NCBI GenBank assembly: GCA_964534665.1
Contig: CAZHRT010000004.1
Span: forward strand, 10,956-74,955
Source of the DNA: an uncultured Methanosarcinales archaeon
Lineage (GTDB): Archaea; Nanobdellota; Nanobdellia; Woesearchaeales; JAHJBD01
DNA length: 64,000 nucleotides
Reading direction: 5' to 3'
Under the pieces are notes generated by a model. The model did not search any database and was not told the DNA's origin. It was given only the letters and a program-made list of their open reading frames with translations. This document shows, in pieces, positions 12,321 to 33,177 of the stretch. Within the stretch, counting starts at the first letter, position 1. Each line of letters opens with the position of its first letter. A program made the position numbers and the translations under genes.

Positions 12321-12527
12321 ATGACGTTATTAGGAGTTGAGGAAGTAACACTTGCAGTTATTCTTGGTACATTGTTAGCAATAGTTTATGCACTTAGAGT
12401 TTTGGTTCTTATGGAACGAAGAATTGCTCGAATTGAAGGACACATTGAAGGTGTTGTTAGCAAAATTATGAAAGAAGAACTTAAGATTGAAAAATTAGAA
12501 AAAGCACGTACTAGAAGGAGAAATTAA
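12321..12527 (+). CDS. Small single-TM protein followed by a charged coiled-coil tail (68 aa)
   Basis: Strong RBS AGAGGTGG 6 nt upstream, one TM helix, KE-rich tail. Confidence 0.45.
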   Translation: MTLLGVEEVTLAVILGTLLAIVYALRVLVLMERRIARIEGHIEGVVSKIMKEELKIEKLEKARTRRRN

Positions 12528-12909: not shown

Positions 12910-13796
12910 AGTTTTATCTTCATCAAATCTCTTGCAACTTCTGAATTATCAAATACTAATCTTGCGTCTTCTTCAATTTCTTGGCCACTAGTATATCTCG
13001 CACTTAAATGATTAAGAACCAACCTCTTTGCATTGGTTTGGCTTGCAATTAATCCAGCATCTTTTGCAGTCATATGTTTATGCTCTTCAGCTTTATCAGA
13101 TAATTTTGAGGTGTAAGTTGCTTCACAAATTAATAAGTCTACATCTTCAGCTATTTGATTACAAGATTTACAAGGGACACTATCTGAGATTATTCCAATT
13201 GTTCTACCCTTGACAATATAAGCTATATCTTCTGGCTTAATCTTTTTCCCTTTGTAAGTGATTGATTTATTTTCTTGAATTTTACCTAATAATGGCCCAT
13301 CAGGTATCCCAAATTTTTTTGCCTTTTTAGTGTCTATTCTTAATTTATCTTTTTCTTCAAACCTAAATCCTAAGCTTTCGATACCATGATCTAATTGATA
13401 AACTATAAGTTCCATATCAGAATTTTCAAAGAATGCACCTTTACCAATTTCCTTAATTTCAAAATTTAGTGGTTTGTCAAAAACAAATGCTTCGAACATA
13501 GCATCAAATCTTTTTTTTGTTCCTTTGGGTCCATATATCATTAACTTTTCAGAATAGCCCAAAGCTGCTAAACTTTGTAATAAACCAGGCAAACCTAAAA
13601 CATGGTCCCCATGCCAATGTGAAATTAATATTTTAGTTATCTTAGTGATTGATTTACCAGCTAATTTAAACTGCCTTTGTGTCCCCTCACCACAATCAAT
13701 TAAAATTCCTTGATCTTTATAACTAATAAAAACAGACGATTGATTCCGTTCTTTGGTTGGCACCATCGATGAAGTGCCTAAAAATAATATTTCCAT
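12906..13796 (-). CDS. rnz: Ribonuclease Z (tRNA 3' endonuclease)
   Basis: Metallo-beta-lactamase HWHGDH motif plus an exosite-containing tRNase Z fold. The 4-nt overlap with hjc suggests an operon. Confidence 0.9.
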   Translation of the reverse strand: MEILFLGTSSMVPTKERNQSSVFISYKDQGILIDCGEGTQRQFKLAGKSITKITKILISHWHGDHVLGLPGLLQSLAALGYSEKLMIYGPKGTKKRFDAMFEAFVFDKPLNFEIKEIGKGAFFENSDMELIVYQLDHGIESLGFRFEEKDKLRIDTKKAKKFGIPDGPLLGKIQENKSITYKGKKIKPEDIAYIVKGRTIGIISDSVPCKSCNQIAEDVDLLICEATYTSKLSDKAEEHKHMTAKDAGLIASQTNAKRLVLNHLSARYTSGQEIEEDARLVFDNSEVARDLMKIKL

Positions 13797-13874
13797 TCTC
13801 CTGAAGAAACTTTATAGATATTTAAAACTATGTTTTTAGAAATCTTTTTAAACCGACTAGTAAATTAAGATATT

Positions 13875-14444
13875 ATGGTTAAGAAGAAAAAAGAAAACGC
13901 CCAAGTTAATGAAAAAAAGATTAAAGTATTGGCAGTCTTATCTGAAGGATCTGTTTTAACTGAAAATTCAGATGCTGCTAGAGATTTATATAATCAAAGT
14001 AGATTTGGAACCATCCTTGATAATGGAAAAGTTCAATTAACTTTGATAGAATCATTATACCTTCTAGATAAAGGCAGATTAGATTTAAGAAATAATAGGA
14101 ATCAGGAAGTAATCTTTGACCTTTTCCTTAAAAAAGCAAAAAAACTTGAAAAAAATTTTTGGGTTAGATATGGTGTGTTTAAAGATATCAGAAATAGGGG
14201 GTATATAATCAAAACAGCACTCAAATTCGGTGCAGACTTTAGAGTTTATGATAGGGGTATTAAACCAGGAGAAGACCATGCAAAATGGATTGTTTATCCT
14301 GTTCAAGAAACATCTAGTTTAACCTGGTATGACTTTGCAGCAAAAAATCGTGTTGCCCATTCAACAAAAAAAAGATTGTTAATAGGGGTCGTTGACGAGG
14401 AAAATTCTGTAACTTATTATGAAATCAAATGGGTTAGGCCATAA
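13875..14444 (+). CDS. endA: tRNA-splicing endonuclease catalytic subunit
   Basis: C-terminal catalytic block YRGY..K..GADFRVY...H..W typical of EndA; 189 aa. Confidence 0.85.
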   Translation: MVKKKKENAQVNEKKIKVLAVLSEGSVLTENSDAARDLYNQSRFGTILDNGKVQLTLIESLYLLDKGRLDLRNNRNQEVIFDLFLKKAKKLEKNFWVRYGVFKDIRNRGYIIKTALKFGADFRVYDRGIKPGEDHAKWIVYPVQETSSLTWYDFAAKNRVAHSTKKRLLIGVVDEENSVTYYEIKWVRP

Positions 14445-14475
14445 ATTATATAAACTTGGTTAGGTTACTTAACCC

Positions 14476-15465
14476 ATGGACATTCACCGGGGTATTTTAG
14501 ATTTTATTCGTATTAAAGGGCCTAGTTTACCTACCCAAATTGCCAAACATATTGGAAAAGATTCATTAATGGCTTCTGTGTATTTATCAGAACTAGCTTC
14601 AACTAAGAAGATATTAATCTCTTGGTTAAAAGTTGGTGCATCCCCACTATATTATTTACCTGGTCAACAAAATAAATTACAAAATTTCTCTTCTAAGCTA
14701 AATGAAAAAGATTTAGAAGCATATAATTTGCTTAAAGAAAAAAAAATTATACAAGAAAAGGAATTAAGTCCCTTGTATAGGGTCGCTATGAAGAATCTAA
14801 AAGATTTTGCAGAACCATTAAACGTTACTTTCAATGGTGGAACAGAGATCTTTTGGAAATGGTCACTTTTGTCTGAACAAGAAACAAAAGAAACAATACA
14901 AAGCATTGTAAATCCTATAAAAGAATTACCAAAAGAAACTAAAAAAGAAGAAACAAAAATAGAAGATAATAATGTTCAAGAAAAGGGTGCAGAAGAAAAG
15001 AAAATAGATAAGCCTATTGAAGAAAAAATAATCCCAAAAAAAGAAATTCTCAACAATAAAACTGAAATCAATAAAGAAACGCCCATTAAATCAAAAGAAA
15101 TAGAAGAAGTTCAACAAAAAATAATTAAAACCGAGAAAAAAGAAAAGAAAAACATAGAATCAGATTTCCTCAATCAAATTGAAGATTATTTCGCATCAAA
15201 TGGTATTAAAATTATTGAAAAAAATATAATCAGAAAAACTGAATTAGATTTCTTGTTGAGTGTACCTAGTTCGGTGGGTAATTTAACTTATTATTGTAAG
15301 GCTAAATCAAAGATAAAAATTAATGATGGCGATCTAAGTTCGGCTTTTATCCAGGCACAATCAAAAAAATTGCCTTGTTTTTTTGTTACAAAAGGGGATT
15401 TGACTAAAAAAGCTCAAGAAATGCTTGAACAAGAATTTCCTGGAATGCATATAAAAAAAATATAA
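14476..15465 (+). CDS. Hypothetical protein: N-terminal winged helix, K/E-rich low-complexity linker, C-terminal restriction-endonuclease-like (PD-(D/E)xK-like) module
   Basis: wH-like N-terminus (ILDFIRIKGPSLPTQIAKHIG), (KE)n linker, C-terminal E..D...YYCKAK block. Confidence 0.4.
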   Translation: MDIHRGILDFIRIKGPSLPTQIAKHIGKDSLMASVYLSELASTKKILISWLKVGASPLYYLPGQQNKLQNFSSKLNEKDLEAYNLLKEKKIIQEKELSPLYRVAMKNLKDFAEPLNVTFNGGTEIFWKWSLLSEQETKETIQSIVNPIKELPKETKKEETKIEDNNVQEKGAEEKKIDKPIEEKIIPKKEILNNKTEINKETPIKSKEIEEVQQKIIKTEKKEKKNIESDFLNQIEDYFASNGIKIIEKNIIRKTELDFLLSVPSSVGNLTYYCKAKSKIKINDGDLSSAFIQAQSKKLPCFFVTKGDLTKKAQEMLEQEFPGMHIKKI

Positions 15466-15466
15466 A

Positions 15467-16477
15467 ATGGGTGTCGCATTTAAAGATTTAATACAGGGAA
15501 AAGATATTAGTTTTGAAGAACTAAAAGACAAAATATTGGTTATAGATTCATTTAATTTATTATACCAATTTCTAACTACTATTAGAAGTAGGGACGGTAG
15601 TGCTTTAACGGATTCTAAAGGCAATATAACTTCTCATTTAGTAGGGATGTTTTCTAGGATAACTAAATTAATGACATATGGTATTAAATTAGCTTTTGTT
15701 TTTGATGGAAAACCTCCTGAACTAAAACAAAGAGAAAGGGCAAGACGAAGAGAGTTAAAAAAAGAAGCAGAATTAAAATATGAAGAAGCAGTTGAAGAAA
15801 AAGATATCGATTCAATGAAAAAATATGGTGGTCGAACTGTCCGTTTAACAAAAGATTTAATTGATGAATCAAAACAACTTTTAGAATATTTAGGATTACC
15901 CGTTATCCAAGCACCTTCTGAAGGAGAAGCGCAAGCTGCCTATATGGTCAAGAAAGGTGATGCTTACGCTACTGTAAGTCAAGATTATGATACACTATTA
16001 CATTGTTCTGAAAAATTAATTAGAAACCTTTCAATAGCGGGCAAAAAAAAGAAGGGTTTAACTTACGAAACCTTCAAACCACAAATAATCAACTTAGCTG
16101 AAACATTAAATAACGTAGGAATTGATCAAAATCAATTAATCGTGCTTGCAATATTAATAGGTACAGACTATAATCCTGGGGGCATAAAAGGCATTGGCCC
16201 AAAAAACGCATTAAAATTAGTTAAAAAATACGGTTCAGATTTTGATGCTTTATTCAAAGAAGTAAAAACAGGTTTTAATTGGACAGAAGTTTATTATCAA
16301 ATTAAAAAAATGCCAGTAACAGATGACTATAAACTTGAATGGAAAGAAATTAATGTAACCCAATTAATAGAATTCTTATTGAAAAGAGAATTTTCTGAAG
16401 AACGAATTGAATCAAGTTTAAAGCGCCTTGTAAAGTCAAAAAAAGCAAAACAGCAAACATCTCTTGCCGACTTCTAG
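15467..16477 (+). CDS. fen: Flap endonuclease 1
   Basis: XPG-N/XPG-I domains, acidic active-site residues (VIDSFNLLYQF, VFDGKPPELK), H3TH and a C-terminal PIP-like tail. Confidence 0.95.
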   Translation: MGVAFKDLIQGKDISFEELKDKILVIDSFNLLYQFLTTIRSRDGSALTDSKGNITSHLVGMFSRITKLMTYGIKLAFVFDGKPPELKQRERARRRELKKEAELKYEEAVEEKDIDSMKKYGGRTVRLTKDLIDESKQLLEYLGLPVIQAPSEGEAQAAYMVKKGDAYATVSQDYDTLLHCSEKLIRNLSIAGKKKKGLTYETFKPQIINLAETLNNVGIDQNQLIVLAILIGTDYNPGGIKGIGPKNALKLVKKYGSDFDALFKEVKTGFNWTEVYYQIKKMPVTDDYKLEWKEINVTQLIEFLLKREFSEERIESSLKRLVKSKKAKQQTSLADF

Positions 16478-16512
16478 TTACTTTTATATACTTTTAATAT
16501 TTTTATTATATT

Positions 16513-17337
16513 ATGAAGCTAAAAGAATTATTATCTAAAAAATTAACAAAAAAACAATTAAAAATGTTACCTACTTCTTTTGATGTGGTGGGAGATATTC
16601 TAATTTTTAACCAGTTCCCAGAAGAACTTGAAAAAAAAGAAAAAATTATTGGAGATATAATATTAAAAGAACATAAAAATGTTAAAATAATATGCAAAAA
16701 GACAAAAAAACATTCGGGGATATATAGATTACCTAAATTAAAAATTATTGCAGGGCAAAGAAGAAAAGAAACAGAACATAAAGAAAATAATGTTAGATTA
16801 AAACTTAATGTAGAAAAAGTATATTTCTCAGCGAGATCTTCAACAGAAAGAAAACGAATTTATGAACAAGTTAAAGATGGTGAAGATGTTTTAGTTATGT
16901 TTTCAGGTTGTGGCCCATTTACAATTGAAATTGCCAGAAATTCTAATCCCAAAAAAGTTTCTGCTGTTGAAATAAATCCTATTGCACACGAATATGCTGT
17001 AGAAAATATTAAATTAAACAAAGTTCAAGATAAAGTTAATTTACTCTTTGGTGATGTTAATGATATCTTACCAAAACTTAAAAAAAAGTTTGACCGAATC
17101 TTAATGCCTTTGCCAATGTGGGGAGAAGCTTTTCTTGAATTAGCAATCAGTAAAGTAAAGAAAAAAGGAATAGTGCATTTCTATGATTTTGGTGAAGATA
17201 CTTTCCAAACTGCAAAAATTAAAGTTAAAGAAGCATGTAAACAAACAAAAAAGAAATGTAAAATATTAAACGCAGTAAAATGTGGGCAATTTTCCCCTAA
17301 AGTGTTTAGAATATGTATCGATTTCAGAGTAGAATAG
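16513..17337 (+). CDS. trm5: tRNA (m1G37) methyltransferase Trm5 / Taw2-type class I SAM-dependent methyltransferase
   Basis: Met-10+ like domain, SAM-binding VMFSGCGPFTIE, NLPK-like catalytic loop. Confidence 0.75.
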   Translation: MKLKELLSKKLTKKQLKMLPTSFDVVGDILIFNQFPEELEKKEKIIGDIILKEHKNVKIICKKTKKHSGIYRLPKLKIIAGQRRKETEHKENNVRLKLNVEKVYFSARSSTERKRIYEQVKDGEDVLVMFSGCGPFTIEIARNSNPKKVSAVEINPIAHEYAVENIKLNKVQDKVNLLFGDVNDILPKLKKKFDRILMPLPMWGEAFLELAISKVKKKGIVHFYDFGEDTFQTAKIKVKEACKQTKKKCKILNAVKCGQFSPKVFRICIDFRVE

Positions 17338-17382
17338 TTCTTAATTTTTATTTATAAATATAATAAACAAATATTTTATTGA

Positions 17383-17498
17383 TACTTACAATGTAAGTAA
17401 TATTGGAAGAGTATACTTACAATGTAAGTAAACAAAAGACAAATATACTTACAATGTAAGTAAAACCACAACCTGAAGGAATACTTACAATGTAAGTA
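17383..17498. repeat. Array of four identical 17-bp perfect palindromes TACTTACA-A-TGTAAGTA (at 17383-17399, 17414-17430, 17446-17462, 17482-17498). Each is embedded in aTACTTACAATGTAAGTAa, and the unique spacers are 14, 15 and 19 bp
   Basis: Read directly in the sequence. Lies between the convergent 3' ends of trm5 (+) and polD large subunit (-). Confidence 0.9.
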
Positions 17499-17638: not shown

Positions 17639-20600
17639 TTAAAACCACTTTCCTAAACCTTCTTGTTTTTCTTTTTCCTTACCAAAAACCCCTTCAGCCC
17701 TTCTTTGTGTAAGTTCAAGTGTTTGTTTAAGATATGCTGGGAGGTTGTATTTTTCAGCAAGCGAAACAGCCGGCCCTAAATACTTAACAATAGACCCTTC
17801 AGAAATAGTAAACAATATCTTACCGTCGCACTTAGTACATTTACCAATTAATGGCGGTCTACGGAATTTTTCATTGCATTGTACACACCTAAACTGTTGC
17901 ATAGAAAACTTTCTAAGATTCCCTTTCATATCAGGTAAAAAATGCCGTTCAATAACTAATCTTGCTACATCTGCTTCGTCAACTGCCCGAATTAATTCAG
18001 CTAATTCCATTTGCCCATAAAGTTTTTCTTGCATAGAAGGTAATGTTTTGTATGCTGAACATCTAACCCCTGCATTAATGTCCTCAGTATCATGAGTAAA
18101 ACCGTAGCCATAATATTGTCTAGGTGTATTAAGATAATTTATTGCTTGATCAATCTTAACATCCCAGGGTGGCTTAAACTCTTCACCTGCTTGATATAAT
18201 TCTAAAGGGTATTTTGAAACAATATCTAGATCAAAAAACATGTCATCTACCTCGGAAGGTATCAATTTATATGTTAAAACCAGGGGCGCATCTTGTGTTG
18301 ATCCCCTAGAACTAGGTAAATATTGCCTAGAAAAATTTAACAAACAATCTAACAATAAAGAAACGCTTGCCTCATCCCCATCACAATCTCTCCTTGTAGC
18401 TGCATGAAGCATAGGGTGGGCAAAAAACCCCTGTGTTTTTGAAAAACCCACTATTCTTCCAACAATTCCTGCTGAAGTATGTGGTGCCAAAGCAACAACT
18501 AACTGCCCGGCTAAATCATCGCGTGTTTGAATATTATAATTAGATTGTAAACCATATAATCTTGTCAAAAGCTCATCAACAAATCCTGCAGTCTTCTCTA
18601 AAATAACATCTGCCCCAAGATCAGGAGATTCTATACATGCAGGTAAAATAATATCTTGGGGTTTAAGTTCTAAAATCTGATTTTCTTCTTTGAGTTCCTT
18701 CCCCTTAATATCAACATCATACCCCAATTTAATTAATTTTAATATTGAAGTCCCCACTTCTTTTGGTTTAAAATGGGTGAGGGGTAACTGAGTCATATCA
18801 TACCTTGTAGTCCCGTCTTTATTTACATTAATCTCATATTTTGCCCTAAGTATCCCTTTGCCCAAATGTTCTGTTATGTGATTTCTATTGGCTGTTCCTT
18901 TAACACCTTTTATCAAATCTGGAAATACTCTAAGCTTTAATTTTTTAAGTACATGCCCAAACATTGTGTTAATGTCTAATCCTTTTCTTTCATAACTTCT
19001 AGCTTTTCCGTGTTGGCACTCTTCTTTGTCTATCTTACCACAAGTAGAGCATATAAAAAGCTGTTTTGTTTTTACATCACAAACTTCACAAACACTAAAT
19101 GGTGTTTCATTTCCACATTTCTCACATTTAAATATTGGAAAATCTGAATTGATTCGTTTTTTTAATAGTGCGCTTTGAAAACACTTCATTTTGCCGCCTT
19201 CTTCGCCAACTGGGAAAAGTACATGTGGTGCACCAGTCAATTTCCTCATTTTTGCTTTTTCTGGGCGGCCCATTCTCGCCCCAACAAAAACCCCTACCTT
19301 ATCTTTTATTTTTACATCAGAACATTCATTTATTAAATCTAAAACTTGTTTTTCTTCGTTAGTGGGTTCCATAATCTTTTCCTTAAAAGCTTCGGTAAAT
19401 ATATTATCAAGAATTAAAGCATCTTCTTTTCCAACCACTACAAACTCCTTATTTGCAACTATATGTGGTACGCCTAAAATTTCTAACACCCTTTTTGGTT
19501 CATCATCCAAAGGCAAAATGAGTTTATTTTCTTTGTGTGTTCCTTTTTCAATCCAATCAAAAAGTATACCTAATTGCTTAAGAGATATTGTTTTCCAATA
19601 ATAGGTATATTTGGGGTGTAAAGGGACACCATATTTTTTTGATAAGTTCAATGATTCTAATGCGTTTGGCCTAATTTTATGTGGCTCTTTCAAAAAATCT
19701 ATATTTTCGCCCTTAGATTTTTGTTCCAGTTCTAACGCCCATATATCTTCACAGTACCCTGCAGGAACTAAAGGGTGTGCACGATTAAAAAAGTCCCCAT
19801 AATTAAACAAAATATCGCCCAAAAACAATATTTCTTTGACCTGGCTTGATACTTCCTTGGCTTTAACCACCGAATCAACATAAACAACAGAACCATCATT
19901 TAATTTAACTATTGGTCCATCAATAGTATCACAAGTTGTCATAGATGCAGCTTTTCCTGGGCGTTCTAATTTAAGTTGTGTCCCAACACCAATAAACTTC
20001 TTTAAAATATGTGTTGTTGCTGGGTGTATTGCCGAAGCAGAGTATCCAGTTGTTCTTGCCCTGCCATATCTTAATCTAAACCCACCAACTGCCAAAGGGT
20101 GTGTTAAAACCGGCCTACCTGCGACCATATCTTTAATAAAAGTATAATTTGGGGTTAGCCCTTCACCTTTTTTTTCCTCTACCCCTTTAGATTTTGCAGA
20201 TTTCTGAATTTTCAAAAATTCTTTAATAAAATCCCATTGCCCCATATCAAAATCCTGCCCCCATTCGTCGAGTTGTTTCCACATTTTTGGTGCTTTCTGA
20301 CTTAAACATTCCCCCATAACCAAACAAAAACCATTCCTAATCCTATTAGTTTCTATACGAGGAATGTCTTTATAATTTGATACTTCAATTTTTTCTGATG
20401 GGTCACCATCAATTTGGACAGGAAGATTCTTAGCCATAAAAGCTAATTCTTCTTCACTAGGCAAATATTGTAAATTAGTTATTCTATCATGGTAATCATA
20501 AAGTTCTGCAACCGTTCTTTTAACTTCTTTGTCTGTTGGATCATAAACATCATATCCAAACTTTTTTCTAATATAATCTGCTATTAATACTGAAACAGAT

Positions 20601-21085
20601 GCCCCGGTTCCACCGGCACTCCTAATTGGTCCAGAATAAAGTAAGGCAAAATATTCTTTACCGTCTGCCCGCTTTCTGATGCTTAGCCCGGCAAACCCTT
20701 CCAAAGGAGAAGCAACAGTTCCTAATGTAATATAAGCAAAACCAATTCTAATTCCTATTTCCATTGCTTCTTTTTTATCTTTAAATTTACAATATTTTTC
20801 ATTTGCAATCTCTTCTGCAATAATAAATGCCACCCTCCAATCTAAAGACCCATACTCTTTTTCAAGTTCTTGAATTCTTTCTGGTATTGATGTTCCAACA
20901 ATTTGTGGAGCAATAGTAGAAATCAAACCAACAACTCTTTCTGCCATATTTTTTGCTTTAGGAATTTCAGTATTTGGGGCTGGATCATAACCTTTAGCCC
21001 TTGCCTTTTCAGCCAAAACATATAATTCATTAACTTGTTTTTCAATATCCAAAAAATAATTGTCCATATTACTCATTTCCACCAA
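17639..21085 (-). CDS. polC: DNA polymerase II (PolD) large subunit DP2
   Basis: 1148 aa with a conserved DP2 N-terminus (MDNYF...AKGYDP) and C-terminal zinc-binding Cys clusters. Confidence 0.95.
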   Translation of the reverse strand: MVEMSNMDNYFLDIEKQVNELYVLAEKARAKGYDPAPNTEIPKAKNMAERVVGLISTIAPQIVGTSIPERIQELEKEYGSLDWRVAFIIAEEIANEKYCKFKDKKEAMEIGIRIGFAYITLGTVASPLEGFAGLSIRKRADGKEYFALLYSGPIRSAGGTGASVSVLIADYIRKKFGYDVYDPTDKEVKRTVAELYDYHDRITNLQYLPSEEELAFMAKNLPVQIDGDPSEKIEVSNYKDIPRIETNRIRNGFCLVMGECLSQKAPKMWKQLDEWGQDFDMGQWDFIKEFLKIQKSAKSKGVEEKKGEGLTPNYTFIKDMVAGRPVLTHPLAVGGFRLRYGRARTTGYSASAIHPATTHILKKFIGVGTQLKLERPGKAASMTTCDTIDGPIVKLNDGSVVYVDSVVKAKEVSSQVKEILFLGDILFNYGDFFNRAHPLVPAGYCEDIWALELEQKSKGENIDFLKEPHKIRPNALESLNLSKKYGVPLHPKYTYYWKTISLKQLGILFDWIEKGTHKENKLILPLDDEPKRVLEILGVPHIVANKEFVVVGKEDALILDNIFTEAFKEKIMEPTNEEKQVLDLINECSDVKIKDKVGVFVGARMGRPEKAKMRKLTGAPHVLFPVGEEGGKMKCFQSALLKKRINSDFPIFKCEKCGNETPFSVCEVCDVKTKQLFICSTCGKIDKEECQHGKARSYERKGLDINTMFGHVLKKLKLRVFPDLIKGVKGTANRNHITEHLGKGILRAKYEINVNKDGTTRYDMTQLPLTHFKPKEVGTSILKLIKLGYDVDIKGKELKEENQILELKPQDIILPACIESPDLGADVILEKTAGFVDELLTRLYGLQSNYNIQTRDDLAGQLVVALAPHTSAGIVGRIVGFSKTQGFFAHPMLHAATRRDCDGDEASVSLLLDCLLNFSRQYLPSSRGSTQDAPLVLTYKLIPSEVDDMFFDLDIVSKYPLELYQAGEEFKPPWDVKIDQAINYLNTPRQYYGYGFTHDTEDINAGVRCSAYKTLPSMQEKLYGQMELAELIRAVDEADVARLVIERHFLPDMKGNLRKFSMQQFRCVQCNEKFRRPPLIGKCTKCDGKILFTISEGSIVKYLGPAVSLAEKYNLPAYLKQTLELTQRRAEGVFGKEKEKQEGLGKWF

Positions 21086-22610
21086 ACCTTAATATTTTAA
21101 CCTTCCTTGTTTTTAGATTAACTATCGGCACCCTACTTGGTTCAGGGTTGTGTCCAACTTTTTCTTGAAAATCAGTTTTACTTTGCCAGCAAGAACCAGA
21201 AATCAATGTAACGTTCCTATAATTTGCAGCAATAGATTTGTGAATGTGCCCAGTAACAAAAATGTCTGGAATATCATTAATCACTAATGCGTCTTCATTT
21301 TGGGGCAAGTATAATGTTGAAGTGTGGGTTGGGGCCAAATGCCTTCTTTTTAACAAAAACTTCATTATTAAGTCTCCACGATCATAGCCGCCCTTATTTC
21401 TTATTGAATCAACATTGGCAACAAAATAATCAAACGAATAACCATGATACATCAAAACATCAAAACCTGAAAAATTTTCAGATGCATGAATATTAATCAT
21501 TGCCGGATTAGAAACCATTGTAACATTAGGTAAGTCATATAACTGACCCGCAAAATCTTTATACAATGGTGGTTGTGGTTCTGCAATTCGCATAGCATCG
21601 TGATTGCCTGGACAAACAATTATCTCAACATGTCCGGGTATTTTTTTTAATAACCTGGCACATTCATTATATTGTTCATTAATATCTTTAATAGATAATT
21701 CTTCATCCTGTCCAGGATAAATCCCGCACCCATCAACCAAATCACCAACAATAAATGCGTATTTAATCTTGGATGCCACGGCTTTTTGTGTATCATTCCC
21801 CACTTCCCCGTTCATCCAACTTAAAAATTTATCAAAATCTTTAGGTAAAAAATTAGTAGAACCAATATGTAAATCTGAAAGAAAAACTGCATAAACTTCC
21901 TCATCTATTTTTTTAAGTTCTTTTGTTAAAGGAACTTCTGGCCATAGCACAGTATTAGCAAAAATAATATTATCCCCACTTACACCATTAACAGCAATAA
22001 CCTCATCCAACACAATATCTTTTGCTTCATTAAAAAGTTCAGGTTTGTTCTTATTGACTAATACATTTGTTGTTCCTGTTGGATCTTCAACAACAATCAT
22101 AAGGTTACCATTCTTTGTTGTACGTTTTTCAGAAACCATCGCAATTAAAGATACATTATCCCTGTCTTTTTTATTTTTCAATCTACTTATACTTGTTAAA
22201 TTGGATATTTCCATCCTCTTTGATAAGAGTTTTTCCATTGAAGCATACCTTGCATTAAATAAATCAACAAAATCTTTTAATTTTCTTTTTTTTGGTTCTA
22301 AATTATAAGAAAATTTTACATTAACTTGTGAATTAGATTTAACTTCTTTTTTTTGAACATAAGAAGTATAATCTTTTTCCCCTCCTTCTTTTTCTAAAAT
22401 TGACTTTGATTTATCAATTTCCTTCCATTCTAGGTTTTGTCCAATAAGCTGTTCTGCATCTTTCCCATACACCAATAATTCTTCATCAGATAAATTTTTA
22501 ATTTGGTCCAAAGAAACATTTTCCAATTTTTCAAGTAATTCAGGGCTAACTAAAACATCTTTCTCCATAAGATAAGAAACTATTTCCTTTTTCTCCATTT
22601 TAAAAAGCAA
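21069..22610 (-). CDS. polB: DNA polymerase II (PolD) small subunit DP1 (Mre11-like calcineurin phosphoesterase fold)
   Basis: VFLSDLHIGS, GDLVDG, GNHD and GHIH phosphoesterase motifs, plus an N-terminal OB. Alternative start at 22598 (MEKKE). Overlaps the DP2 start by 17 nt. Confidence 0.9.
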   Translation of the reverse strand: MLFKMEKKEIVSYLMEKDVLVSPELLEKLENVSLDQIKNLSDEELLVYGKDAEQLIGQNLEWKEIDKSKSILEKEGGEKDYTSYVQKKEVKSNSQVNVKFSYNLEPKKRKLKDFVDLFNARYASMEKLLSKRMEISNLTSISRLKNKKDRDNVSLIAMVSEKRTTKNGNLMIVVEDPTGTTNVLVNKNKPELFNEAKDIVLDEVIAVNGVSGDNIIFANTVLWPEVPLTKELKKIDEEVYAVFLSDLHIGSTNFLPKDFDKFLSWMNGEVGNDTQKAVASKIKYAFIVGDLVDGCGIYPGQDEELSIKDINEQYNECARLLKKIPGHVEIIVCPGNHDAMRIAEPQPPLYKDFAGQLYDLPNVTMVSNPAMINIHASENFSGFDVLMYHGYSFDYFVANVDSIRNKGGYDRGDLIMKFLLKRRHLAPTHTSTLYLPQNEDALVINDIPDIFVTGHIHKSIAANYRNVTLISGSCWQSKTDFQEKVGHNPEPSRVPIVNLKTRKVKILRFGGNE

Positions 22611-23811
22611 TCCCTAAACTATCATTCAATATATTAATTACCTTTTCAAGTGTATCTTTAGGGATCATAATTGTAATTTCTCTTGATCTCCCATATCTAC
22701 CTTTAGAAAGCACCCTTGAATTAATTATTCCCAACATATCAAGTTCTGCAATTATATCTGAAACCCTTCTTTGGGTAAGCATACTCAACCCAATTTTTGG
22801 GCATAATTTTTGATATAATTCATAAACTTCCCCAGTAAAAATTCCTTCTTTTTTCTCGTCTTGAATTTTAATAATTGAAAATAATACTACTTGGGACTGT
22901 TTTGGTTGGTTGGTTATTAGGTCCAATATTCTATCATACTCAATTTTTTGTTCTGCATGGTCAATATTTTCTATTTTAACTACTTTTTGACAATTTCTCT
23001 CTGCAACTTCCGCTGCAACACGTAAAAGTTCTATTGCCCTTCTTGCATCCCCGTGCTCCCTTGCAGCATATGCTGCACATTTTTCAATAACTCCTGTAGA
23101 TAATGCACTTGTACTAAAAGCTAAATCAGACCTTTGTTGAAGTATTTCTTTAATTTGTATTGCATTATAGGGTGGAAAAACAACTTCTTCTTCTGATAAT
23201 GAAGACCTTACTCTTGGATCTAATGTGTCTATAAAAAATAAATCATTAGAAATTCCAATAAAAGACACCCTTGCATTATTAAGTTCTTCATTCATTCTAG
23301 TAATATTATATAATAATTCATCACCAATTTTAGATACTAATTGATCTATTTCATCTAAAGCTACAACAATAATTTGTTTTTCTTTATCTATCACATCAAA
23401 AAATTTTTTATATACTTCTTCTGTTGGTAGCCCTGTGTAAGGCACCTCAACACCTAAATTCCTAAGTAATTGTGCAACAAGCCTATATTCTGTATCTGCA
23501 ACCCTTTTAAGTTTACAATTAAGATATATCGTTTTTAGTTTAATTCCTTTTTCTTTAGCATAATTTGCCAATTGATTAATTGTATGCTTAACAACTAATG
23601 TTTTACCTGTTCCAGTTTTACCAAATATAAAAAGATTAGATGGTTTATCAGATCTTAAAGAAGGTGCAAGTACATTAGCAACTTTTTTTAATTCATTTTC
23701 CCTATGATTAATTGTTTCAGGACAATATCCTGATTGTAGTAAGGCCCTATCTTTAAATAAAGGTTCTTTTTTAAGATAATCATCAAAAAAATTATTCAAT
23801 CCTCCATCCAT
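22600..23811 (-). CDS. cdc6: Orc1/Cdc6 replication initiator
   Basis: N-terminus MDGGLNNFFDDYLKKEPLFKDRALLQSGYCPETINHRE matches the canonical Orc1 start, followed by Walker A GKTGTGKT and a C-terminal wH. The track start at 23835 uses TTG with an 8-aa extension; the ATG at 23811 is preferred. Confidence 0.9.
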   Translation of the reverse strand: MDGGLNNFFDDYLKKEPLFKDRALLQSGYCPETINHRENELKKVANVLAPSLRSDKPSNLFIFGKTGTGKTLVVKHTINQLANYAKEKGIKLKTIYLNCKLKRVADTEYRLVAQLLRNLGVEVPYTGLPTEEVYKKFFDVIDKEKQIIVVALDEIDQLVSKIGDELLYNITRMNEELNNARVSFIGISNDLFFIDTLDPRVRSSLSEEEVVFPPYNAIQIKEILQQRSDLAFSTSALSTGVIEKCAAYAAREHGDARRAIELLRVAAEVAERNCQKVVKIENIDHAEQKIEYDRILDLITNQPKQSQVVLFSIIKIQDEKKEGIFTGEVYELYQKLCPKIGLSMLTQRRVSDIIAELDMLGIINSRVLSKGRYGRSREITIMIPKDTLEKVINILNDSLGIAF

Positions 23812-23835
23812 ACTATTTCTTGAACAAGAAAACAA

Positions 23836-24128
23836 TATATAAACTTTGTGTCATCACCCCTTGGTTTCTACTGGAAAAGTTTTTTAAATGTTTTTGCTTC
23901 TTTCTTTCTTTCTTTCTTTTCTATATAGAAAATAATAATAATAATAATAATAATAAACATAAAAACACATAATATAATATATATAATATAATATATATTT
24001 TTAATAAAAAAACAAATATGAACAAAAAATAGATTATAAATCTCCATAGGAAACCAAGGGGTCACACAGAAAATGTTACTTCTTAGTTACTATAAAGTTT
24101 AATATGCTTATTAATTAAAAAGCCATAT
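23836..24128. other. oriC: Chromosomal replication origin (oriC): two inverted ORB elements flanking an AT-rich DUE that contains (TCTT)5, (AAT)8 and ATATAAT repeats. ORB-A is at 23847-23876 on the minus strand (TCCAGTAGAAACCAAGGGGTGATGACACA) and ORB-B at 24043-24069 on the plus strand (TCCATAGGAAACCAAGGGGTCACACAG)
   Basis: Both boxes share TCCAnnnGAAACCAAGGGGT, which matches the archaeal ORB core (dyad plus G-string). They are in inverted orientation ~165 bp apart, enclosing sequence that is almost pure A/T. The origin is immediately upstream of orc1/cdc6. Confidence 0.8.
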
Positions 24129-24893
24129 ATGGTAGATAATAGGCTATTAAATTACATAAAAGAAAAACAAAAAAGTGGATATTCTGATAATGTTATTAAA
24201 CAAGCCCTACTTAAATTTGGATACTCTGAACAAGTTATAAATTCATTTTTTCAAAAGAAACAACATATTCCAACAAAAGAATTAATTGGAGAACAACCAA
24301 ATTTCTTAAATAAAACATTTTATCTTTTTTCTAAACCTAAAAAATTATTTAAAATAACTAAACAAGAAAGCAAAAAACAAACAATAACTTATTTTGTTAC
24401 ATTAATTTCCATTATTTTCACAATTATATTATTAACAGAATTTTATACTTTATTTATTAGGAAAACAGACTATTTAATTTCAATTTTAAGTATAATTTTA
24501 ATGGTTTCACTTTTTATTATACTTTTTGTATTAATCTCTATTGGTTTTGCTTTTTTATATAGGTTTTTACTAAAATCGTTCGGAATAATCACTCATTTTA
24601 AAGATAATTTAAAGGTGGTTGCTTATTCTTTAATTCCCTATTTTTTTATAATTTCATTTATTCAGTCCCCAATCTATAAATGGTTACTTATAATTGATGT
24701 TTCTTTTGGTTTTATATCTTTAAACCCATATCTAATTTTTTCATTTTTTATATTGTCTAAAGGAATAGAAAACAACTATAATATTTCAAGAAAAAAAGCA
24801 CTATTATTTGCTTACACACCTTTAATAATTCTTATTTTAGTATTGTTTGCCATATTTTTTAATGCCCTAACGTTTAAAGGGTGGTTTTTTTAA
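24129..24893 (+). CDS. Hypothetical polytopic membrane protein with an N-terminal soluble domain
   Basis: Hydrophobicity only. Confidence 0.4.
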   Translation: MVDNRLLNYIKEKQKSGYSDNVIKQALLKFGYSEQVINSFFQKKQHIPTKELIGEQPNFLNKTFYLFSKPKKLFKITKQESKKQTITYFVTLISIIFTIILLTEFYTLFIRKTDYLISILSIILMVSLFIILFVLISIGFAFLYRFLLKSFGIITHFKDNLKVVAYSLIPYFFIISFIQSPIYKWLLIIDVSFGFISLNPYLIFSFFILSKGIENNYNISRKKALLFAYTPLIILILVLFAIFFNALTFKGWFF

Positions 24894-28767: not shown

Positions 28768-30066
28768 ATGGTTAAATTGAAAAAAGAAAATTCCGACAAT
28801 TTTATTTTACCAAGGTTTAGAAAGTTAGGGGACCAATATCTTATTACCTCTGATGGTGGCCACTGGACTTTTTCAAAAACACCAAAAATTAATAATATTA
28901 ACAACAATGATCCTGCGTGTACACAATATCAACGTAAGTATAAACATTTATTTCAGGGCACAGCATTACACATCATTGTGTTAACATTAAGGTGTAATCT
29001 TAAATGTAGTTATTGTCATGCGAGCGTATTGCCTACAGAGAAACAAGGGAAAGATATTGATGAAGTTACATTAAAAAAAACAATTGATTTTATTTTTCAA
29101 AGTCCTGCAGATAAAATTACTATTGAGTTTCAAGGTGGGGAGCCGCTTTTACGTTTTGATTTAATTAAAAAAGCAATAGATTATGCTTTGTCAAAAAAAG
29201 GTAAAGAAGTTAGATTCGCACTAGTTACAAACCTTCTTCTTATGGATGATGAAAAATTAGATTACCTTATTAGCAAAAAAGTTGGAATATGTACATCTCT
29301 TGATGGTCCAAAGGAAGTGCACGATCAAAATCGTGGTTGCTATGATCTACTTACTAAAAAAATTGATTTGGTAAAAAATAAAACACAACTTAATGCATTA
29401 ATGGTAACCACCAAACATTCTTTAGGCAAACACAAAGAGATTATAGATGAATATGTACTGTTCGGTCTTGACAAAATCCAGATTAAGCCATTAAATCAAT
29501 TAGGTTTTGCTAAAGGCAGACAAGATTTAAGCATTACTTCTGAAGAGTTTATAGATTTTTGGCAGAAATCAATTAAGTATATCATGGAACTTAATAGCAA
29601 AGGCGTTAATATTAAAGAAACTATGACCGAAGTTATTTTAAATAAAATAAAAGGGTTTGTGTCAGATGAAATTTATCTTGATTTATTAAGCCCCTGTGGT
29701 GCAGCAATAGGCCAATTAGCATATAATTACAACGGCAATATTTATTCGTGTGATGAAGCAAGGATGCTAAATGACGACTTATTTTTGTTGGGCAACGTGA
29801 ACAAAAACAATTACAAAGAAATTTTAACTAGTGATAAATGCTGTGCATTAATTGCGAGCTCCATTAATGACACCCATTTTTGTGATTTATGTGCATATAA
29901 ACCCTATTGTGGATTATGTCCTGTTTGCAGTTATGCAGATACAAATAATGTTATACCTCATTTACCAGATTTTAGATGTACTGTACATAAAGCAATGTTT
30001 GACTTTATATTTAAGAATTTTAGTAGCTTGAATGATTCCCATGATTCCCATGGTGGGCATGATTAA
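28768..30066 (+). CDS. Radical SAM enzyme with C-terminal SPASM domain (HxsB/HxsC-like peptide maturase; anSME-like)
   Basis: CNLKCSYC (Cx3Cx2C), GGEPLL glycine-rich SAM motif, SPASM Cys cluster (C..GN.YSC...CDLCAYKPYCGLCPVC). The C-terminal tail is NDSHDSHGGHD. Confidence 0.75.
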   Translation: MVKLKKENSDNFILPRFRKLGDQYLITSDGGHWTFSKTPKINNINNNDPACTQYQRKYKHLFQGTALHIIVLTLRCNLKCSYCHASVLPTEKQGKDIDEVTLKKTIDFIFQSPADKITIEFQGGEPLLRFDLIKKAIDYALSKKGKEVRFALVTNLLLMDDEKLDYLISKKVGICTSLDGPKEVHDQNRGCYDLLTKKIDLVKNKTQLNALMVTTKHSLGKHKEIIDEYVLFGLDKIQIKPLNQLGFAKGRQDLSITSEEFIDFWQKSIKYIMELNSKGVNIKETMTEVILNKIKGFVSDEIYLDLLSPCGAAIGQLAYNYNGNIYSCDEARMLNDDLFLLGNVNKNNYKEILTSDKCCALIASSINDTHFCDLCAYKPYCGLCPVCSYADTNNVIPHLPDFRCTVHKAMFDFIFKNFSSLNDSHDSHGGHD

Positions 30067-30289
30067 CTTCAATTGTATGTGTGTTAGTATCAACATTTAG
30101 CAATAAAGGGCTATATTTCCCTTTTGGATGATTAAAAACTGCTTCTACAGATTTTGCAGCAATCCCAATTACTGCTGCAGTACCAACAATAGCACCAACA
30201 GTCATAATAGCATGCTTAGAAATTTTACCTTCTTCATCTTGTAAAAATGATTTAATCTTCTTTTTTATCTTTGGAAGTAACATAATCAT
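30020..30289 (-). CDS. Small membrane-anchored peptide with His-rich C-terminal tail (candidate HxsA-like precursor/substrate), 89 aa
   Basis: Basic N-terminus MIMLLPKIKKKIK, a possible class-III-like cleavage context (KHA|IMTVGAIVGTAAVIGIAA), and the C-terminus NHAHHGNHGNHSSY. Starts 12 nt after the stop of the upstream radical SAM on the same strand. A chance ORF of this length in ~25% GC DNA is improbable. Confidence 0.5.
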   Translation of the reverse strand: MIMLLPKIKKKIKSFLQDEEGKISKHAIMTVGAIVGTAAVIGIAAKSVEAVFNHPKGKYSPLLLNVDTNTHTIEVNHAHHGNHGNHSSY

Positions 30290-30301
30290 AGATATAAATA
30301 A

Positions 30302-31252
30302 TTAATATTTAAACTTTGTTATAAGTGGGTCATTGTTTATGCCTCCAAGACACTTTATTTTATGTTTACACACATTACATTCTTTTGGTAAAAAAGAATT
30401 TAAACTATCAAAAATCTTACCAATTTGGTTGATTGATACATTTCCCAAGATTTTTTGTGAATAATAATCTGTTTTGATATCTCCTTTTGTATCTACCACT
30501 ATACGTGACCTACCACCATCATTAATCCCACCTACACAAACACTATCTGCTTTATTTGATATACAGAACGGAACAGCATTTGCTATAAAAAAATCTTTAT
30601 TATATTGTTTATTTAATCTTGAGATCTCTTGGATAGCCAACCCCATTTCTTTTATACTTGTATTACCTATAGGTCTAAGAAAAAACCAGTCATTATATTC
30701 AATTTCTTGTGCAATTTTATAAAATTCTTCAAGGCATTCAATATTTTTCTTAATTAAAATTGTTGCAAGCATAACAACAACATTATGTGTTTTCAATTTA
30801 TTCAGTATCTCTTTAATCCTTTTTTTTGGATCATGAAAAGAAATTAATATATGGTCAATATATTTTAATGGTCCATTTCTAAGCAAAGTTCCGTTCGTGT
30901 TAACTATTACATATAATCCCTTTTCTTTTGCATAACTCACAATTTTAGTCAAATCTTTACGTAAAAATGGTTCTCCCCCAGTTAATCTAATAGCATTAAC
31001 TCCAGACAAACAAACATTATCTATTATTTTCTTAATTTGACTTAAACTAGGATCACCATTATTTTTATTAAAACAAAATGAACAATTTAAATTACATTTA
31101 TCGGTTATTTCTATTCTAACCTCTTTCAAATTAGATTTATTTTTTCTTTGTTTGATTAAGTGTTTCAGTCTAGATGCAAGTTTCATAAAAATTAGTATAT
31201 CCTCACAATTAATAAGTTTTTGGATAAGTTTTTTATATTCTACAGTGTACAC
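30302..31252 (-). CDS. Radical SAM enzyme with C-terminal SPASM/twitch domain (second HXS-type maturase)
   Basis: CNLNCSFC (Cx3Cx2C), GGEPFL, C-terminal C...C and CNVCKHKIKC (Cx2Cx5C). The start may be the internal Met at 31186, which would leave room for divergent promoters. Confidence 0.7.
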   Translation of the reverse strand: MYTVEYKKLIQKLINCEDILIFMKLASRLKHLIKQRKNKSNLKEVRIEITDKCNLNCSFCFNKNNGDPSLSQIKKIIDNVCLSGVNAIRLTGGEPFLRKDLTKIVSYAKEKGLYVIVNTNGTLLRNGPLKYIDHILISFHDPKKRIKEILNKLKTHNVVVMLATILIKKNIECLEEFYKIAQEIEYNDWFFLRPIGNTSIKEMGLAIQEISRLNKQYNKDFFIANAVPFCISNKADSVCVGGINDGGRSRIVVDTKGDIKTDYYSQKILGNVSINQIGKIFDSLNSFLPKECNVCKHKIKCLGGINNDPLITKFKY

Positions 31253-31258
31253 TAAGTT

Positions 31259-31927
31259 ATGAGATGGGTAATGTTATTTTTAGTGATAGTTGCTTTTTTG
31301 TTATATGAACCAATATCTTTTGAATTATATCTTAACAATGAGTTCTCAGGTAATGCTAAAAAATTTTCAAATAAAGTTATGGAAGGAAAAGTAACATATT
31401 ATGTTAATAATTATTTTACAGAACAAGATTTAGCACCACTATGGAATTTATTATTTTCTAAACACTATTTTTATCCTACAAATTACTTGTCTTTTAATCA
31501 AAGAAGAATACTGGTAAATAAGGTATTTTCATTAAAGCCATCAACTTTGGAACAAGCTTCTGACCAAGTGAATATTCTTAAATATGGTTTGGGTTTAAAC
31601 AACGCTTCATCGACCATACCTTTTAGCCAAACAGGCAACATAATGCTCAAAAAAAATGTTTGTTCAAGTAAATTTAAGATTAATGTAACAGATTCATGTG
31701 AAGTTAGCAATTATATGGACTTATTCTTCTTTTGTGAAAACTCTCTTAGCAGTACAGAAACCGAAATGGTAGAGGGGGCAACAGAAGGAAATTGTGTAAC
31801 ACATTGTAAAGAACATTGTTATAATCCAGCACAAGTTTATGTTAACCAAGACTGTAAAAGCATGTTTGAAAAAAAGTTAATTGACCCAAATGTTAATTTC
31901 CACTGTATATTTTTAAAATGGACCTAG
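31259..31927 (+). CDS. Hypothetical secreted/membrane-anchored Cys-containing protein (222 aa)
   Basis: N-terminal hydrophobic segment MLFLVIVAFLL and ~10 Cys in the C-terminal half. Embedded between two radical SAM genes. Confidence 0.35.
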   Translation: MRWVMLFLVIVAFLLYEPISFELYLNNEFSGNAKKFSNKVMEGKVTYYVNNYFTEQDLAPLWNLLFSKHYFYPTNYLSFNQRRILVNKVFSLKPSTLEQASDQVNILKYGLGLNNASSTIPFSQTGNIMLKKNVCSSKFKINVTDSCEVSNYMDLFFFCENSLSSTETEMVEGATEGNCVTHCKEHCYNPAQVYVNQDCKSMFEKKLIDPNVNFHCIFLKWT

Positions 31928-33177
31928 ATTTACTAAATTTGTCAAAACACGGCATAAGAAAGAAAAAGTATGATCACGAATTTATTTATAGGTATCCTTC
32001 TTCTAGCAATATGCCCAAATTTAATCATGATGGATTTTCTATTACTACAAAAAAAGCTGCATTATACCTCCACTTACCTTTTTGTTCTAGTCCATGTAAA
32101 TTTTGCCATTATTATAAAATACCTAAACCTAATCCAAAACAAATAACAAAATATTTAGAATATGTAAAAAAAGAAATAAAGTTCTATAATGGTATTAAAG
32201 CAACATCTCTTTTTTTGGGTGGCGGAACACCAACATTTCTTGAGTCAGAACAATTAATTGACATATACTCTTACCTAAATGATGCATTCTCTATTGGAGA
32301 CATTGAAAAAACCATAGAATCCAGCCCAGAAACATTAAACAATAAGAAAATTAATACTTTAGCTGATTTGGGATTTAATAGACTAAGTATTGGTGTTCAA
32401 TCATTCAATGATTCGATAAATAAAAATGTTGGCCGAGCACATAATACTAATCAATCAATTCAAGCTATTAATCAAGCAAAAGATGCAGGGTTTAAAGTTA
32501 ATGTTGACTTAATTTATGGTCTACCCTCACAAGACACCAATTCATGGAAAGAATCTTTAGAAAAAGCATACAGATTAAATGTTGATTCTATAACAGCATC
32601 AGAACTTAGGGTGTTACCAGGATCATATTATTACTACACTAACGAAAAGTTCGCATCCGAAAAAAAAATGTTGGGGATGCACGAAACATTTATTGATTTT
32701 TTTCATGATAAAGGTTACAATTTAATATTCCCTTACCAATATTCAAAACAGAAATTTGATTTTTTAGAAACTCAATGGGGCAATAAACAGTTTTTGGGTT
32801 TAGGCGCATCTTCCTGTTCTTATATTGACAAGTGGGATTATAATAATGCTTTTCCTTTGGGCCTTTATTACAAATATATTGACAAATATGGTTATGCCGC
32901 AATTAAAGGGAAAAAACTGAACTTACAAGAACAAATGTTAAGAGAAATCTTACTTGGATTAAAGATCATTAATAAAGGAATATCTAAAAAAGAGTTAAGT
33001 GATAAATATGGTCTTAATAATTTTAAAGTTTTTGATCAATTAGCAGACCTTAAACTAATAGATAACAATCAAAACATAACTCTCACAACAAAAGGAACCC
33101 TATTTTCAGATGAAGTGGCAAATTTTATACTCCGAAAGTTTCAAGCATCCCATCTTCTCCAGAACCAAACTCCATAA
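31918..33177 (+). CDS. HemN/HemW-like radical SAM protein (oxygen-independent coproporphyrinogen-III oxidase family)
   Basis: CSSPCKFC (Cx3Cx2C), GGGTPT and IGVQSFNDSINKNVGRAHN motifs typical of the HemN/HemW family, plus the HemN C-terminal domain. Confidence 0.75.
   Translation: MDLDLLNLSKHGIRKKKYDHEFIYRYPSSSNMPKFNHDGFSITTKKAALYLHLPFCSSPCKFCHYYKIPKPNPKQITKYLEYVKKEIKFYNGIKATSLFLGGGTPTFLESEQLIDIYSYLNDAFSIGDIEKTIESSPETLNNKKINTLADLGFNRLSIGVQSFNDSINKNVGRAHNTNQSIQAINQAKDAGFKVNVDLIYGLPSQDTNSWKESLEKAYRLNVDSITASELRVLPGSYYYYTNEKFASEKKMLGMHETFIDFFHDKGYNLIFPYQYSKQKFDFLETQWGNKQFLGLGASSCSYIDKWDYNNAFPLGLYYKYIDKYGYAAIKGKKLNLQEQMLREILLGLKIINKGISKKELSDKYGLNNFKVFDQLADLKLIDNNQNITLTTKGTLFSDEVANFILRKFQASHLLQNQTP

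Follow-up and report, generated by a model that had tools for sequence, protein, structure and literature searches.

Where on the chromosome does replication begin in the Woesearchaeales, an order of DPANN archaea, and how is the site built? The question is raised by a 64-kb stretch of contig CAZHRT010000004.1 (hereafter the window, i.e., the whole stretch of DNA that was analyzed), in which a preliminary description had placed a replication origin directly upstream of the initiator gene orc1/cdc6. The intergenic region concerned, 23812-24128, reaches from the orc1 ATG (23811, minus strand) to the start of the next gene (24129, plus strand). It contains origin recognition boxes (ORBs), arranged as a pair of opposite polarity around an AT-rich predicted duplex unwinding element (DUE), and it is adjacent to a gene of the Orc1-1 clade whose product retains the DNA-contact residues. 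The match of the boxes to the archaeal ORB consensus, the type of the initiator, the presence of the inverted pair in 51 of 53 loci and the conserved order orc1-DP1-DP2 support the earlier proposal, and we consider the region, with a probability of roughly 0.85, to be a chromosomal replication origin of the oriC1 type. Its design, an ORB-flanked DUE beside the initiator gene, is canonical and such as a specialist would expect. Within the literature that was searched, no paper linking Woesearchaeota with origin recognition boxes was found, and a 2026 preprint (10.64898/2026.05.13.725050), in which 208 closed Nanobdellota genomes were rotated to orc1, contains no ORB or skew analysis. The origin model that can be proposed for the order, i.e., ORB(-), AT-rich spacer, ORB(+), TATA box, and orc1, bears on a lineage of uncultured archaea for which the searched literature describes no ORBs.

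Two inverted boxes and the adjacent initiator gene

The orc1-proximal box (box 1; 23854-23875, minus strand; TCCAGTAGAAACCAAGGGGTGA) and the orc1-distal box (box 2; 24043-24064, plus strand; TCCATAGGAAACCAAGGGGTCA) score 32.2 and 36.1 bits, respectively, with the position weight matrix (PWM) introduced below. Both turn their dyad halves toward the DUE, and the G-string of box 1 points toward the orc1 promoter. The preliminary description had named the right sequences within intervals that were too wide (23847-23876 and 24043-24069), and its statement that the boxes face each other about 165 bp apart proved accurate: they stand in inverted orientation, their TCCA ends facing each other, across a spacer of 167 bp (23876-24042). 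The likeness to the archaeal ORB core, which had also been pointed out there, was borne out by comparison with the pan-archaeal consensus CTTCCAGTGGAAACGAAAGGGGT of Pelve et al., which agrees with box 1 at 19 of 23 positions (5' flanking T counted) and with box 2 at 17 of 23 (5' flanking base counted), in each case with one 1-nt gap. The 13-mer GAAACCAAGGGGT is present without mismatch in both boxes. When the pattern TCCANNNGAAACCAAGGGGTNA was searched for with up to three mismatches, only two sites, i.e., the two boxes, were found in the 64 kb, against a chance expectation of 0.04 in dinucleotide shuffles (0 of 100 shuffles gave two matches). The pair was not listed by a default repeat finder and was recovered by the pattern searches. 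In the intergenic region, the only mini-ORB-like matches are the dyad halves that belong to the two boxes.

The orc1 gene (22600-23811, minus strand) encodes a protein of 403 aa with the Pfam domains Cdc6_C, Cdc6_lid, and AAA. Its start was set at ATG 23811, and not at TTG 23835, by a 403-aa homologue (P0001), and box 1 lies 43 nt from this start. In comparison with the PDB, Orc1 of the window matches Orc1-1 of S. solfataricus (2QBY_A; 3e-108) and ORC1 of A. pernix (2V1U_A; 4e-100) far more strongly than Orc1-3 (1e-43) or proteins of the Orc1-2 type (about 1e-21), and is thus, as judged by sequence similarity, an initiator of the Orc1-1 type; its closest homologues carry the labels Woesearchaeota, Nanoarchaeota, or Nanoarchaeia, from which the window was assigned to the chromosome of a DPANN archaeon. 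In S. solfataricus Orc1-1, mutation of G120/L121 (initiator-specific motif, ISM), R341 (helix-turn-helix, HTH), and R365 (wing) weakens origin binding. The equivalents of these residues in the alignment, i.e., G127 and L128 (ISM), R348 (HTH), and R372 (wing), are kept in the protein of the window.

Throughout the window, dyad-half (mini-ORB-like) matches number 16, compared with about 5 in block shuffles. Four of them lie within 750 bp at 7170-7914, inside a minus-strand gene (6959-8962); none of the four has a G-string, and the cluster is probably codon-composition noise.

Conservation of the box pair in related genomes

A scan of a genome collection yielded 80 loci from different species, whose Orc1 proteins are 56-63% identical to that of the window. 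The statistics on box pairs and spacers refer to the 53 loci (52 related species and the window) whose sequence extends 700 bp or more upstream of orc1. With up to two mismatches, the 13-mer core occurs almost exclusively upstream of orc1, and the family consensus reads tTTCCAtanGAAAynAAGGGGT, in which the TTCCA positions are conserved though they lay outside the search seed. When a 25-nt PWM was applied, 167 matches fell in the 800-bp segments that precede orc1, which together make up 49.5 kb, and 12 in all the rest (758 kb), an enrichment of about 210-fold. Some of these loci had been used to train the matrix, and the density outside the region and the loci outside the training set served as controls.

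The inverted pair was found in the arrangement of the window in 51 of the 53 loci. In these 51, the proximal box shares the strand of orc1 and the distal box is on the other strand, both with the dyad half toward the spacer and the G-string pointing outward. The length of the spacer varies from 93 to 511 bp (median 229), and in every one of the 51 loci it is more AT-rich than its flanks (83% vs. 67%). Two 22-nt inverted arms, complementary at 18 of 22 positions and enclosing a short AT-rich core, could also be taken for the terminal inverted repeats of a miniature transposable element or for an inverted repeat that arose by chance. Yet the pair exists in one copy in the 64 kb, where the chance expectation is the 0.04 given above, its arms fit a known protein-binding consensus, and in 51 species it stands at the same place relative to orc1 while the spacer varies in length and sequence. 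Because of this pattern of conservation, a transposon or a chance repeat can be regarded as practically excluded.

The conservation extends to the genes that follow orc1. The order origin, orc1/cdc6, small and large subunit of PolD, given in the preliminary description, was confirmed by Pfam matches of the DP1 gene (21069-22610, minus strand; DNA_pol_E_B and Metallophos) and of the DP2 gene, the last of the block (17639-21085, minus strand; PolC_DP2_N, central, and catalytic domains, E-values from 1e-81 to 1e-122). Of the 80 related loci, 79 have DP1 directly behind orc1, and 72 have DP2 downstream in the same orientation. Across the origin from orc1, no gene conservation was seen among the relatives; in the window, the genes on this side encode a Yip1-domain protein, an RNase P p30-like protein, a U32 peptidase, and three radical-SAM proteins.

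This variable gene content on the non-orc1 side would fit an origin that belonged to an integrated plasmid or virus and was brought in together with its own orc1, and replicator-initiator pairs of extrachromosomal ancestry are indeed common in archaeal chromosomes (PMC4010727). The initiator is, however, of the type linked to the broadly conserved oriC1 (PMC4010727), it stands in the PolD block in 79 of 80 species, no second orc1 was found in the 64-kb window, and ORC1 has been reported to be part of the phylum's core gene set, in single copy. Moreover, the neighbours are housekeeping genes, i.e., those of FEN1, Hjc, tRNA-splicing endonuclease, Trm5, and an RNase P subunit. As the orc1-PolD block is conserved and the neighbourhood is a housekeeping one, we consider an integrated element very improbable.

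The 20-mer of box 1, TCCAGTAGAAACCAAGGGGT, was found without mismatch in 40 metagenome contigs, 22 of which encode Orc1 within about 650 bp. This search of metagenome contigs revealed no additional close strains, and an exact search of them with box 2 gave zero matches. The Orc1 proteins of the TCCAGTAGAAACCAAGGGGT contigs are 45-51% identical to that of the window and represent a second lineage with a GC content of about 42% (L085-L124). Its origin, also upstream of orc1, comprises three boxes in the orientation (+)(-)(+) with spacers of about 190 bp, a layout that resembles ORB1/2/3 of Sulfolobus. In 20 of 20 loci, the spacer that has the dyad halves turned inward is the more AT-rich of the two.

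A further, strong ORB-like box (20-31 bits) was noticed 5-6 kb from orc1, beyond the origin, in six relatives (L048:37-61, L057:98-122, L067:65-89, L076:122-146, L032:906-930, and L055:19-43). In five of them (not in L055), short tandem repeats abut the G-string end, the units being (GAAT)n, (GAGT)n, (TTTG)n, or 11-mers, depending on the locus. In L032, both box and repeat are part of an open reading frame (ORF) of 217 aa, which has a coiled coil and an HTH-like C-terminus and in which the box encodes SIGNDGV. These far boxes may be gene-embedded ORBs, as in the dp1 gene of Pyrococcus, or may reflect a conserved peptide; no counterpart was found in the window.

The AT-rich spacer and its repeats

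The predicted DUE (23876-24042) contains 88.6% A+T, compared with 68% in the whole window (GC about 30%), and at the scales of 50, 100, and 167 bp it is the segment with the highest A+T content and the lowest duplex stability of the window. The least stable 50-bp stretch begins at 23969, and the thermodynamic minimum of the window falls in an uninterrupted 44-nt A/T tract with ATATAAT-type repeats (23969-24012). In single-strand folding, 187 of 200 shuffled sequences did better than the spacer (z = +1.4).

The repeats enumerated in the preliminary description, (TCTT)5, (AAT)8, and ATATAAT, are all present, the last in the 44-nt A/T run. A (TTCT)5.5 microsatellite (23898-23919, plus strand; 100% matches in Tandem Repeats Finder, TRF) and (AAT)8 (23931-23954, plus strand) are both perfect and abut, one on each side, the central palindrome discussed in the next section. 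A microsatellite DUE is nevertheless not a conserved trait, since perfect microsatellites were found in only 5 of the 51 spacers, and the window is the sole one with two. At the places occupied by the microsatellites of the window, the palindrome is flanked in the relatives by TTATTTAT and ATAAATAA arms. Tracts similar to the 44-nt A/T run, of the form (TATTATA)n, occur in related spacers, and truncated contigs often terminate in them. We take (AAT)8 and (TTCT)5 to be the AT-rich arms of the palindrome, expanded or homogenised in this particular lineage, without a function of their own.

Variation in copy number, which had been expected for both microsatellites, was encountered in one of them. 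Two strains from two Joint Genome Institute (JGI) metagenomes (L081 and L082), whose Orc1 is 99% identical to that of the window, carry 9 and at least 12 copies of (ATT)n, respectively, compared with 8 in the window. In place of the (GAAA)5 of the window, both read GAAATAAATGAAGAAAGAAG (orc1 strand), which differs by substitutions and is of equal length. The contigs of L081 and L082 end inside the (ATT)n repeat, and because contig ends in repeats are unreliable, the apparent length polymorphism of (AAT)n is suggested and not proven.

Contig breaks of this kind are frequent at the locus. Among the 80 species loci, 49 contig ends lie within 6 kb upstream of orc1, and 22 of these fall in the first 300 bp, whereas a single one was found within 300 bp past the orc1 stop codon. 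The broken contigs terminate inside the spacer, in low-complexity sequence rich in TA or ATT. The contigs of L083 and L084, the 81% relative, both end 19 bp upstream of orc1, so that all four closest-relative contigs (L081-L084) stop at the origin spacer region. In practical terms, short-read assemblies of Woesearchaeales break preferentially within the origin; as the breaks lie in the low complexity of the spacer, the sample of loci that span it is probably biased against long repeats.

A 65-aa ORF that spans the spacer (23868-24065, minus strand) was rejected as a low-complexity artefact (it contains the run IIIIIIII). No tRNA gene and no Rfam family were found in the region; one match to a small nucleolar RNA remained below threshold (23 bits, with a cutoff of 50).

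A palindrome in the centre of the spacer

Between the two microsatellites, the spacer contains a perfect palindrome, TTTTCTATATAGAAAA (23917-23932; one copy in the window), which escaped the preliminary description and of which no description was found elsewhere. In an unbiased comparison of k-mers in the 51 spacers with dinucleotide-preserving shuffles, one motif stood out. Its half-site TTTTCTAT/ATAGAAAA is present in 36 of 51 spacers (about 5.5-5.7 expected), CTATATAG in 12 (0.2 expected), and the 14-mer core TTTCTATATAGAAA, with up to two mismatches, in 28 (1.4 expected), of which 7 have a perfect copy, 16 one mismatch, and 5 two mismatches. When at most one mismatch was allowed, 27 copies of TTTCTATATAGAAA were found in the 49.5 kb of origin regions and 6 in the other 758 kb, and the density of the 8-mer TTTCTATA in spacers is 10 times that in other AT-rich stretches. 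The motif hardly ever occurs in more than one copy, its extended consensus TTATTTATTTTCTATATAGAAAATAAATAA also forms a palindrome, of 30 nt, and in 26 of 28 loci the AT skew flips across it from T-rich to A-rich (Wilcoxon p ~1e-4). The loci that lack the palindrome group into a single block of the Orc1 tree; their proximal boxes are in tandem, and they carry TTTTTCTAT with a (TATTATA)n tract behind it.

A hairpin or cruciform role of the palindrome was considered and dismissed: besides the poor folding of the spacer noted above, the variants TTTCAATATAGAAA and TTTCTATATTGAAA break one arm without compensation in the other, and the commonest variant alters one arm only. Both facts argue that the palindrome would be recognised as a sequence, by a protein, and not as a hairpin. 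As judged from the sequence, an ordinary promoter is also unlikely, since on either strand the A-rich arm follows the TATATA core, whereas a B recognition element (BRE) would precede it.

We interpret the palindrome as a candidate site of a dimeric accessory factor, or as a putative symmetry centre for helicase loading. A more specific version, which we put forward tentatively and consider possible rather than probable, is that it may bind a dimeric Woesearchaeales origin factor, an independently arisen functional analogue of the ucm/UBP pair of Sulfolobus (see below), and mark the point between the MCM hexamers, with the (AAT)n/(TTCT)n arms modulating the efficiency of the origin. If so, slippage in these arms would shift the spacing between ORB and palindrome, and origin efficiency would vary within populations. 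The palindrome bears on the question, asked by the authors of the ucm/UBP work, of whether analogous origin factors exist in other archaeal lineages.

Comparison with known archaeal origins

Like the region of the window, oriC1 of Sulfolobus (Saccharolobus) lies directly upstream of an Orc1-1-type gene (S. solfataricus Orc1-1 being the protein to which Orc1 of the window is most similar), has inverted ORBs flanking an AT-rich DUE, and carries a single conserved motif within this DUE. Its ORB2 and ORB3 are inverted around the DUE, and each of them is essential; it should be noted that the polarity of the ORBs in Sulfolobus and Aeropyrum was taken from statements in the text of papers, and not from sequences. 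The winged-helix domain of the initiator protects the mini-ORB, and ORBs that flank a DUE put winged-helix and lid domains face to face across it. By analogy, the dyad-inward geometry of the window agrees with winged-helix domains opposed across the DUE, and the binding of one Orc1 monomer per ORB in fixed polarity, as in Sulfolobus, is presumably shared. The two origins differ in the number of ORBs (three in Sulfolobus, two in the window) and in the motif within the DUE, which in Sulfolobus is the 11-bp, UBP-bound ucm (ATTATACAAAC) and in the window the palindrome of 14-16 nt (TTTCTATATAGAAA); the woesearchaeal locus, moreover, is known from sequence alone. The ucm is located in the middle of the DUE and is essential in Sulfolobus, and UBP has been reported only in Sulfolobales and Desulfurococcales. 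With up to one mismatch, ucm was not found in 23812-24128, and its five matches elsewhere in the window correspond to the chance level.

The arrangement had been called in the preliminary description the same as that of Pyrococcus, which is true of the gene order (oriC-cdc6-dp1-dp2 in Thermococcales) and less so of the boxes. In both cases, two long ORBs form an inverted repeat, and the dyad halves are nearly identical (TTCCAGTGGAAA in Pyrococcus and TTCCAGTAGAAA in the window). However, the ORBs of Pyrococcus are 34 bp long and have the G-string 9 nt past the dyad, compared with a gap of 4 nt in the window, so that in P. furiosus ORB1 (TTCCAGTGGAAATGAAACTCTGGGGGG) the G-string is 5 nt farther from the dyad. 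In Pyrococcus there are also numerous mini-ORBs of 13 bp and, within dp1, a second ORB cluster; both are absent from the window, in whose dp1 no cluster of ORBs or mini-ORBs was found.

In their format, the boxes resemble the predicted ORBs of Methanomassiliicoccales (consensus GTTCCAGTGGAAATGG-AGGGGTA; Pelve et al.), which are also 22 nt long, one base below the archaeal consensus, have the same register, and form inverted pairs near orc1/cdc6; these sites are likewise predictions. Compared with this consensus, the woesearchaeal one has a relaxed second dyad arm (TTCCAtanGAAA) and prefers AAGGGGT. The euryarchaeal ORB consensus reads GTTCCAGTGGAAAC-AAA----GGGGG. Compared by description, Ori1 of Aeropyrum pernix is similar in that 22-bp ORBs of the Orc1-1 type flank an AT-rich region, which turns nuclease-sensitive upon Orc1 binding; it differs from the two-ORB region of the window in having four ORBs in two pairs, in a GC-rich genome.

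Proposed mode of action and the orc1 promoter

By homology, each ORB would bind one Orc1 monomer, with the winged helix on the TTCCA..GAAA half and the ISM of the AAA+ domain toward the GGGG string. Since the boxes are inverted with their dyad halves inward, the two faces formed by winged-helix and lid domains would oppose each other across the 167-bp spacer. ATP-bound Orc1 would then load two MCM hexamers onto the spacer, melting would begin at its least stable point, i.e., in the 44-nt pure A/T tract, and two forks would diverge. Occupancy of the origin by Orc1 probably also feeds back on the transcription of orc1, because the orc1 TATA box directly adjoins box 1 at its G-string end.

This TATA-box-like element, TTTATATA (23836-23843, minus strand), lies about 25 nt upstream of the ATG and is the putative orc1 promoter, which would predict a leaderless mRNA. 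A TATA-like element between the proximal box and the orc1 start is present in most related loci. In 33 of 81 related loci (L001, L002, L004, L083, whose Orc1 is 81% identical, and 29 more), an inverted third mini-ORB, TTCCAnnnGAAA, is inserted between the TATA box and the orc1 ATG; because of this position, the layout suggests autorepression of orc1 in these relatives. The window has lost the mini-ORB and has at its position a perfect 16-nt palindrome, TTTCTTGAACAAGAAA (23816-23831), which may be an operator.

Such features could mean that the boxes serve mainly as Orc1 operators of the divergent promoters of orc1 and the Yip1-domain gene, the origin being dormant or dispensable and replication starting elsewhere or by recombination. 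Each box has its G-string end just upstream of the TATA-like element of the flanking gene, the mini-ORB of the relatives occupies a typical repressor position, a skew signal is absent within the window (see below), and origin-independent replication has been reported in Thermococcus (PMC5663688 and PMC11005403). Operator function alone, however, would not explain why the boxes strictly keep their inverted arrangement on either side of AT-rich DNA in 51 of 51 loci, why duplex stability is lowest there, or why a conserved palindrome lies in the centre, and the distal box is conserved although the gene on its side is not. Regulation and origin function also coexist at known origins. We therefore judge it unlikely that regulation is the main role of the boxes, and return to the origin as the preferred explanation of the region.

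Skew, gene orientation, and points against an origin

Several observations weigh against the region being an active origin. In a regression of plus-strand GC skew per gene, the skew was accounted for by the strand of the gene (0.173 +/- 0.013), and the term for the side of the origin was -0.023 +/- 0.013, which has the unexpected sign and represents no signal. The GC-skew check proposed in the preliminary description revealed a change of slope near 24 kb and no turn there: the cumulative skew falls on to 62 kb. As 64 kb is too short to decide, this result does not amount to a refutation. Only two boxes are present, with no mini-ORB array, and cooperative binding of Orc1 as in Pyrococcus and Methanothermobacter therefore cannot be assumed. 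The palindrome is missing from one subclade of Woesearchaeales, and the factor proposed to bind it is hypothetical, corresponding to no known protein. Some archaea, among them Thermococcus kodakarensis, keep an ORB/cdc6 locus that is dispensable (PMC5663688), and in the window, initiation in vivo at 23812-24128 is something that we infer. On the other hand, the orientation of the genes is mildly consistent with forks leaving 23.9 kb, with 23 genes (35.8 kb) co-oriented with the predicted forks vs. 14 genes (12.5 kb) head-on.

Neighbouring genes and other repeats

The right border of the region, outside the origin itself, is formed by the divergent gene of the Yip1-domain membrane protein (24129-24893, plus strand; Pfam Yip1, E-value 1e-11), and the three radical-SAM genes farther on this side are located at 28768-33177. 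On the orc1 side, the genes of the Hjc resolvase, a nuclease of the metallo-beta-lactamase fold, the tRNA-splicing endonuclease, FEN1, and Trm5/Tyw2 are clustered at 12511-17337. The intergenic gap that separates the 3' end of the DP2 gene from the end of the Trm5-like gene contains a 32-nt tandem repeat (17382-17464; 2.6 copies, 84% matches), whose unit, ATACTTACAATGTAAGTAAACAAAAGAAAAAT, contains the inverted repeat ACTTACA-A-TGTAAGT.

Three giant ORFs follow one another on the plus strand in the right part of the window. The first (35087-40987) encodes 1966 aa and contains DUF5648, the second (43070-50773) encodes 2567 aa with a CarboxypepD_reg domain, and the third (about 50700-64000) exceeds 4433 aa and is open past the end of the window. 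A near-perfect 18-nt repeat, CCAACCACCCCAACTACT, is present in three copies at 50693-50746.

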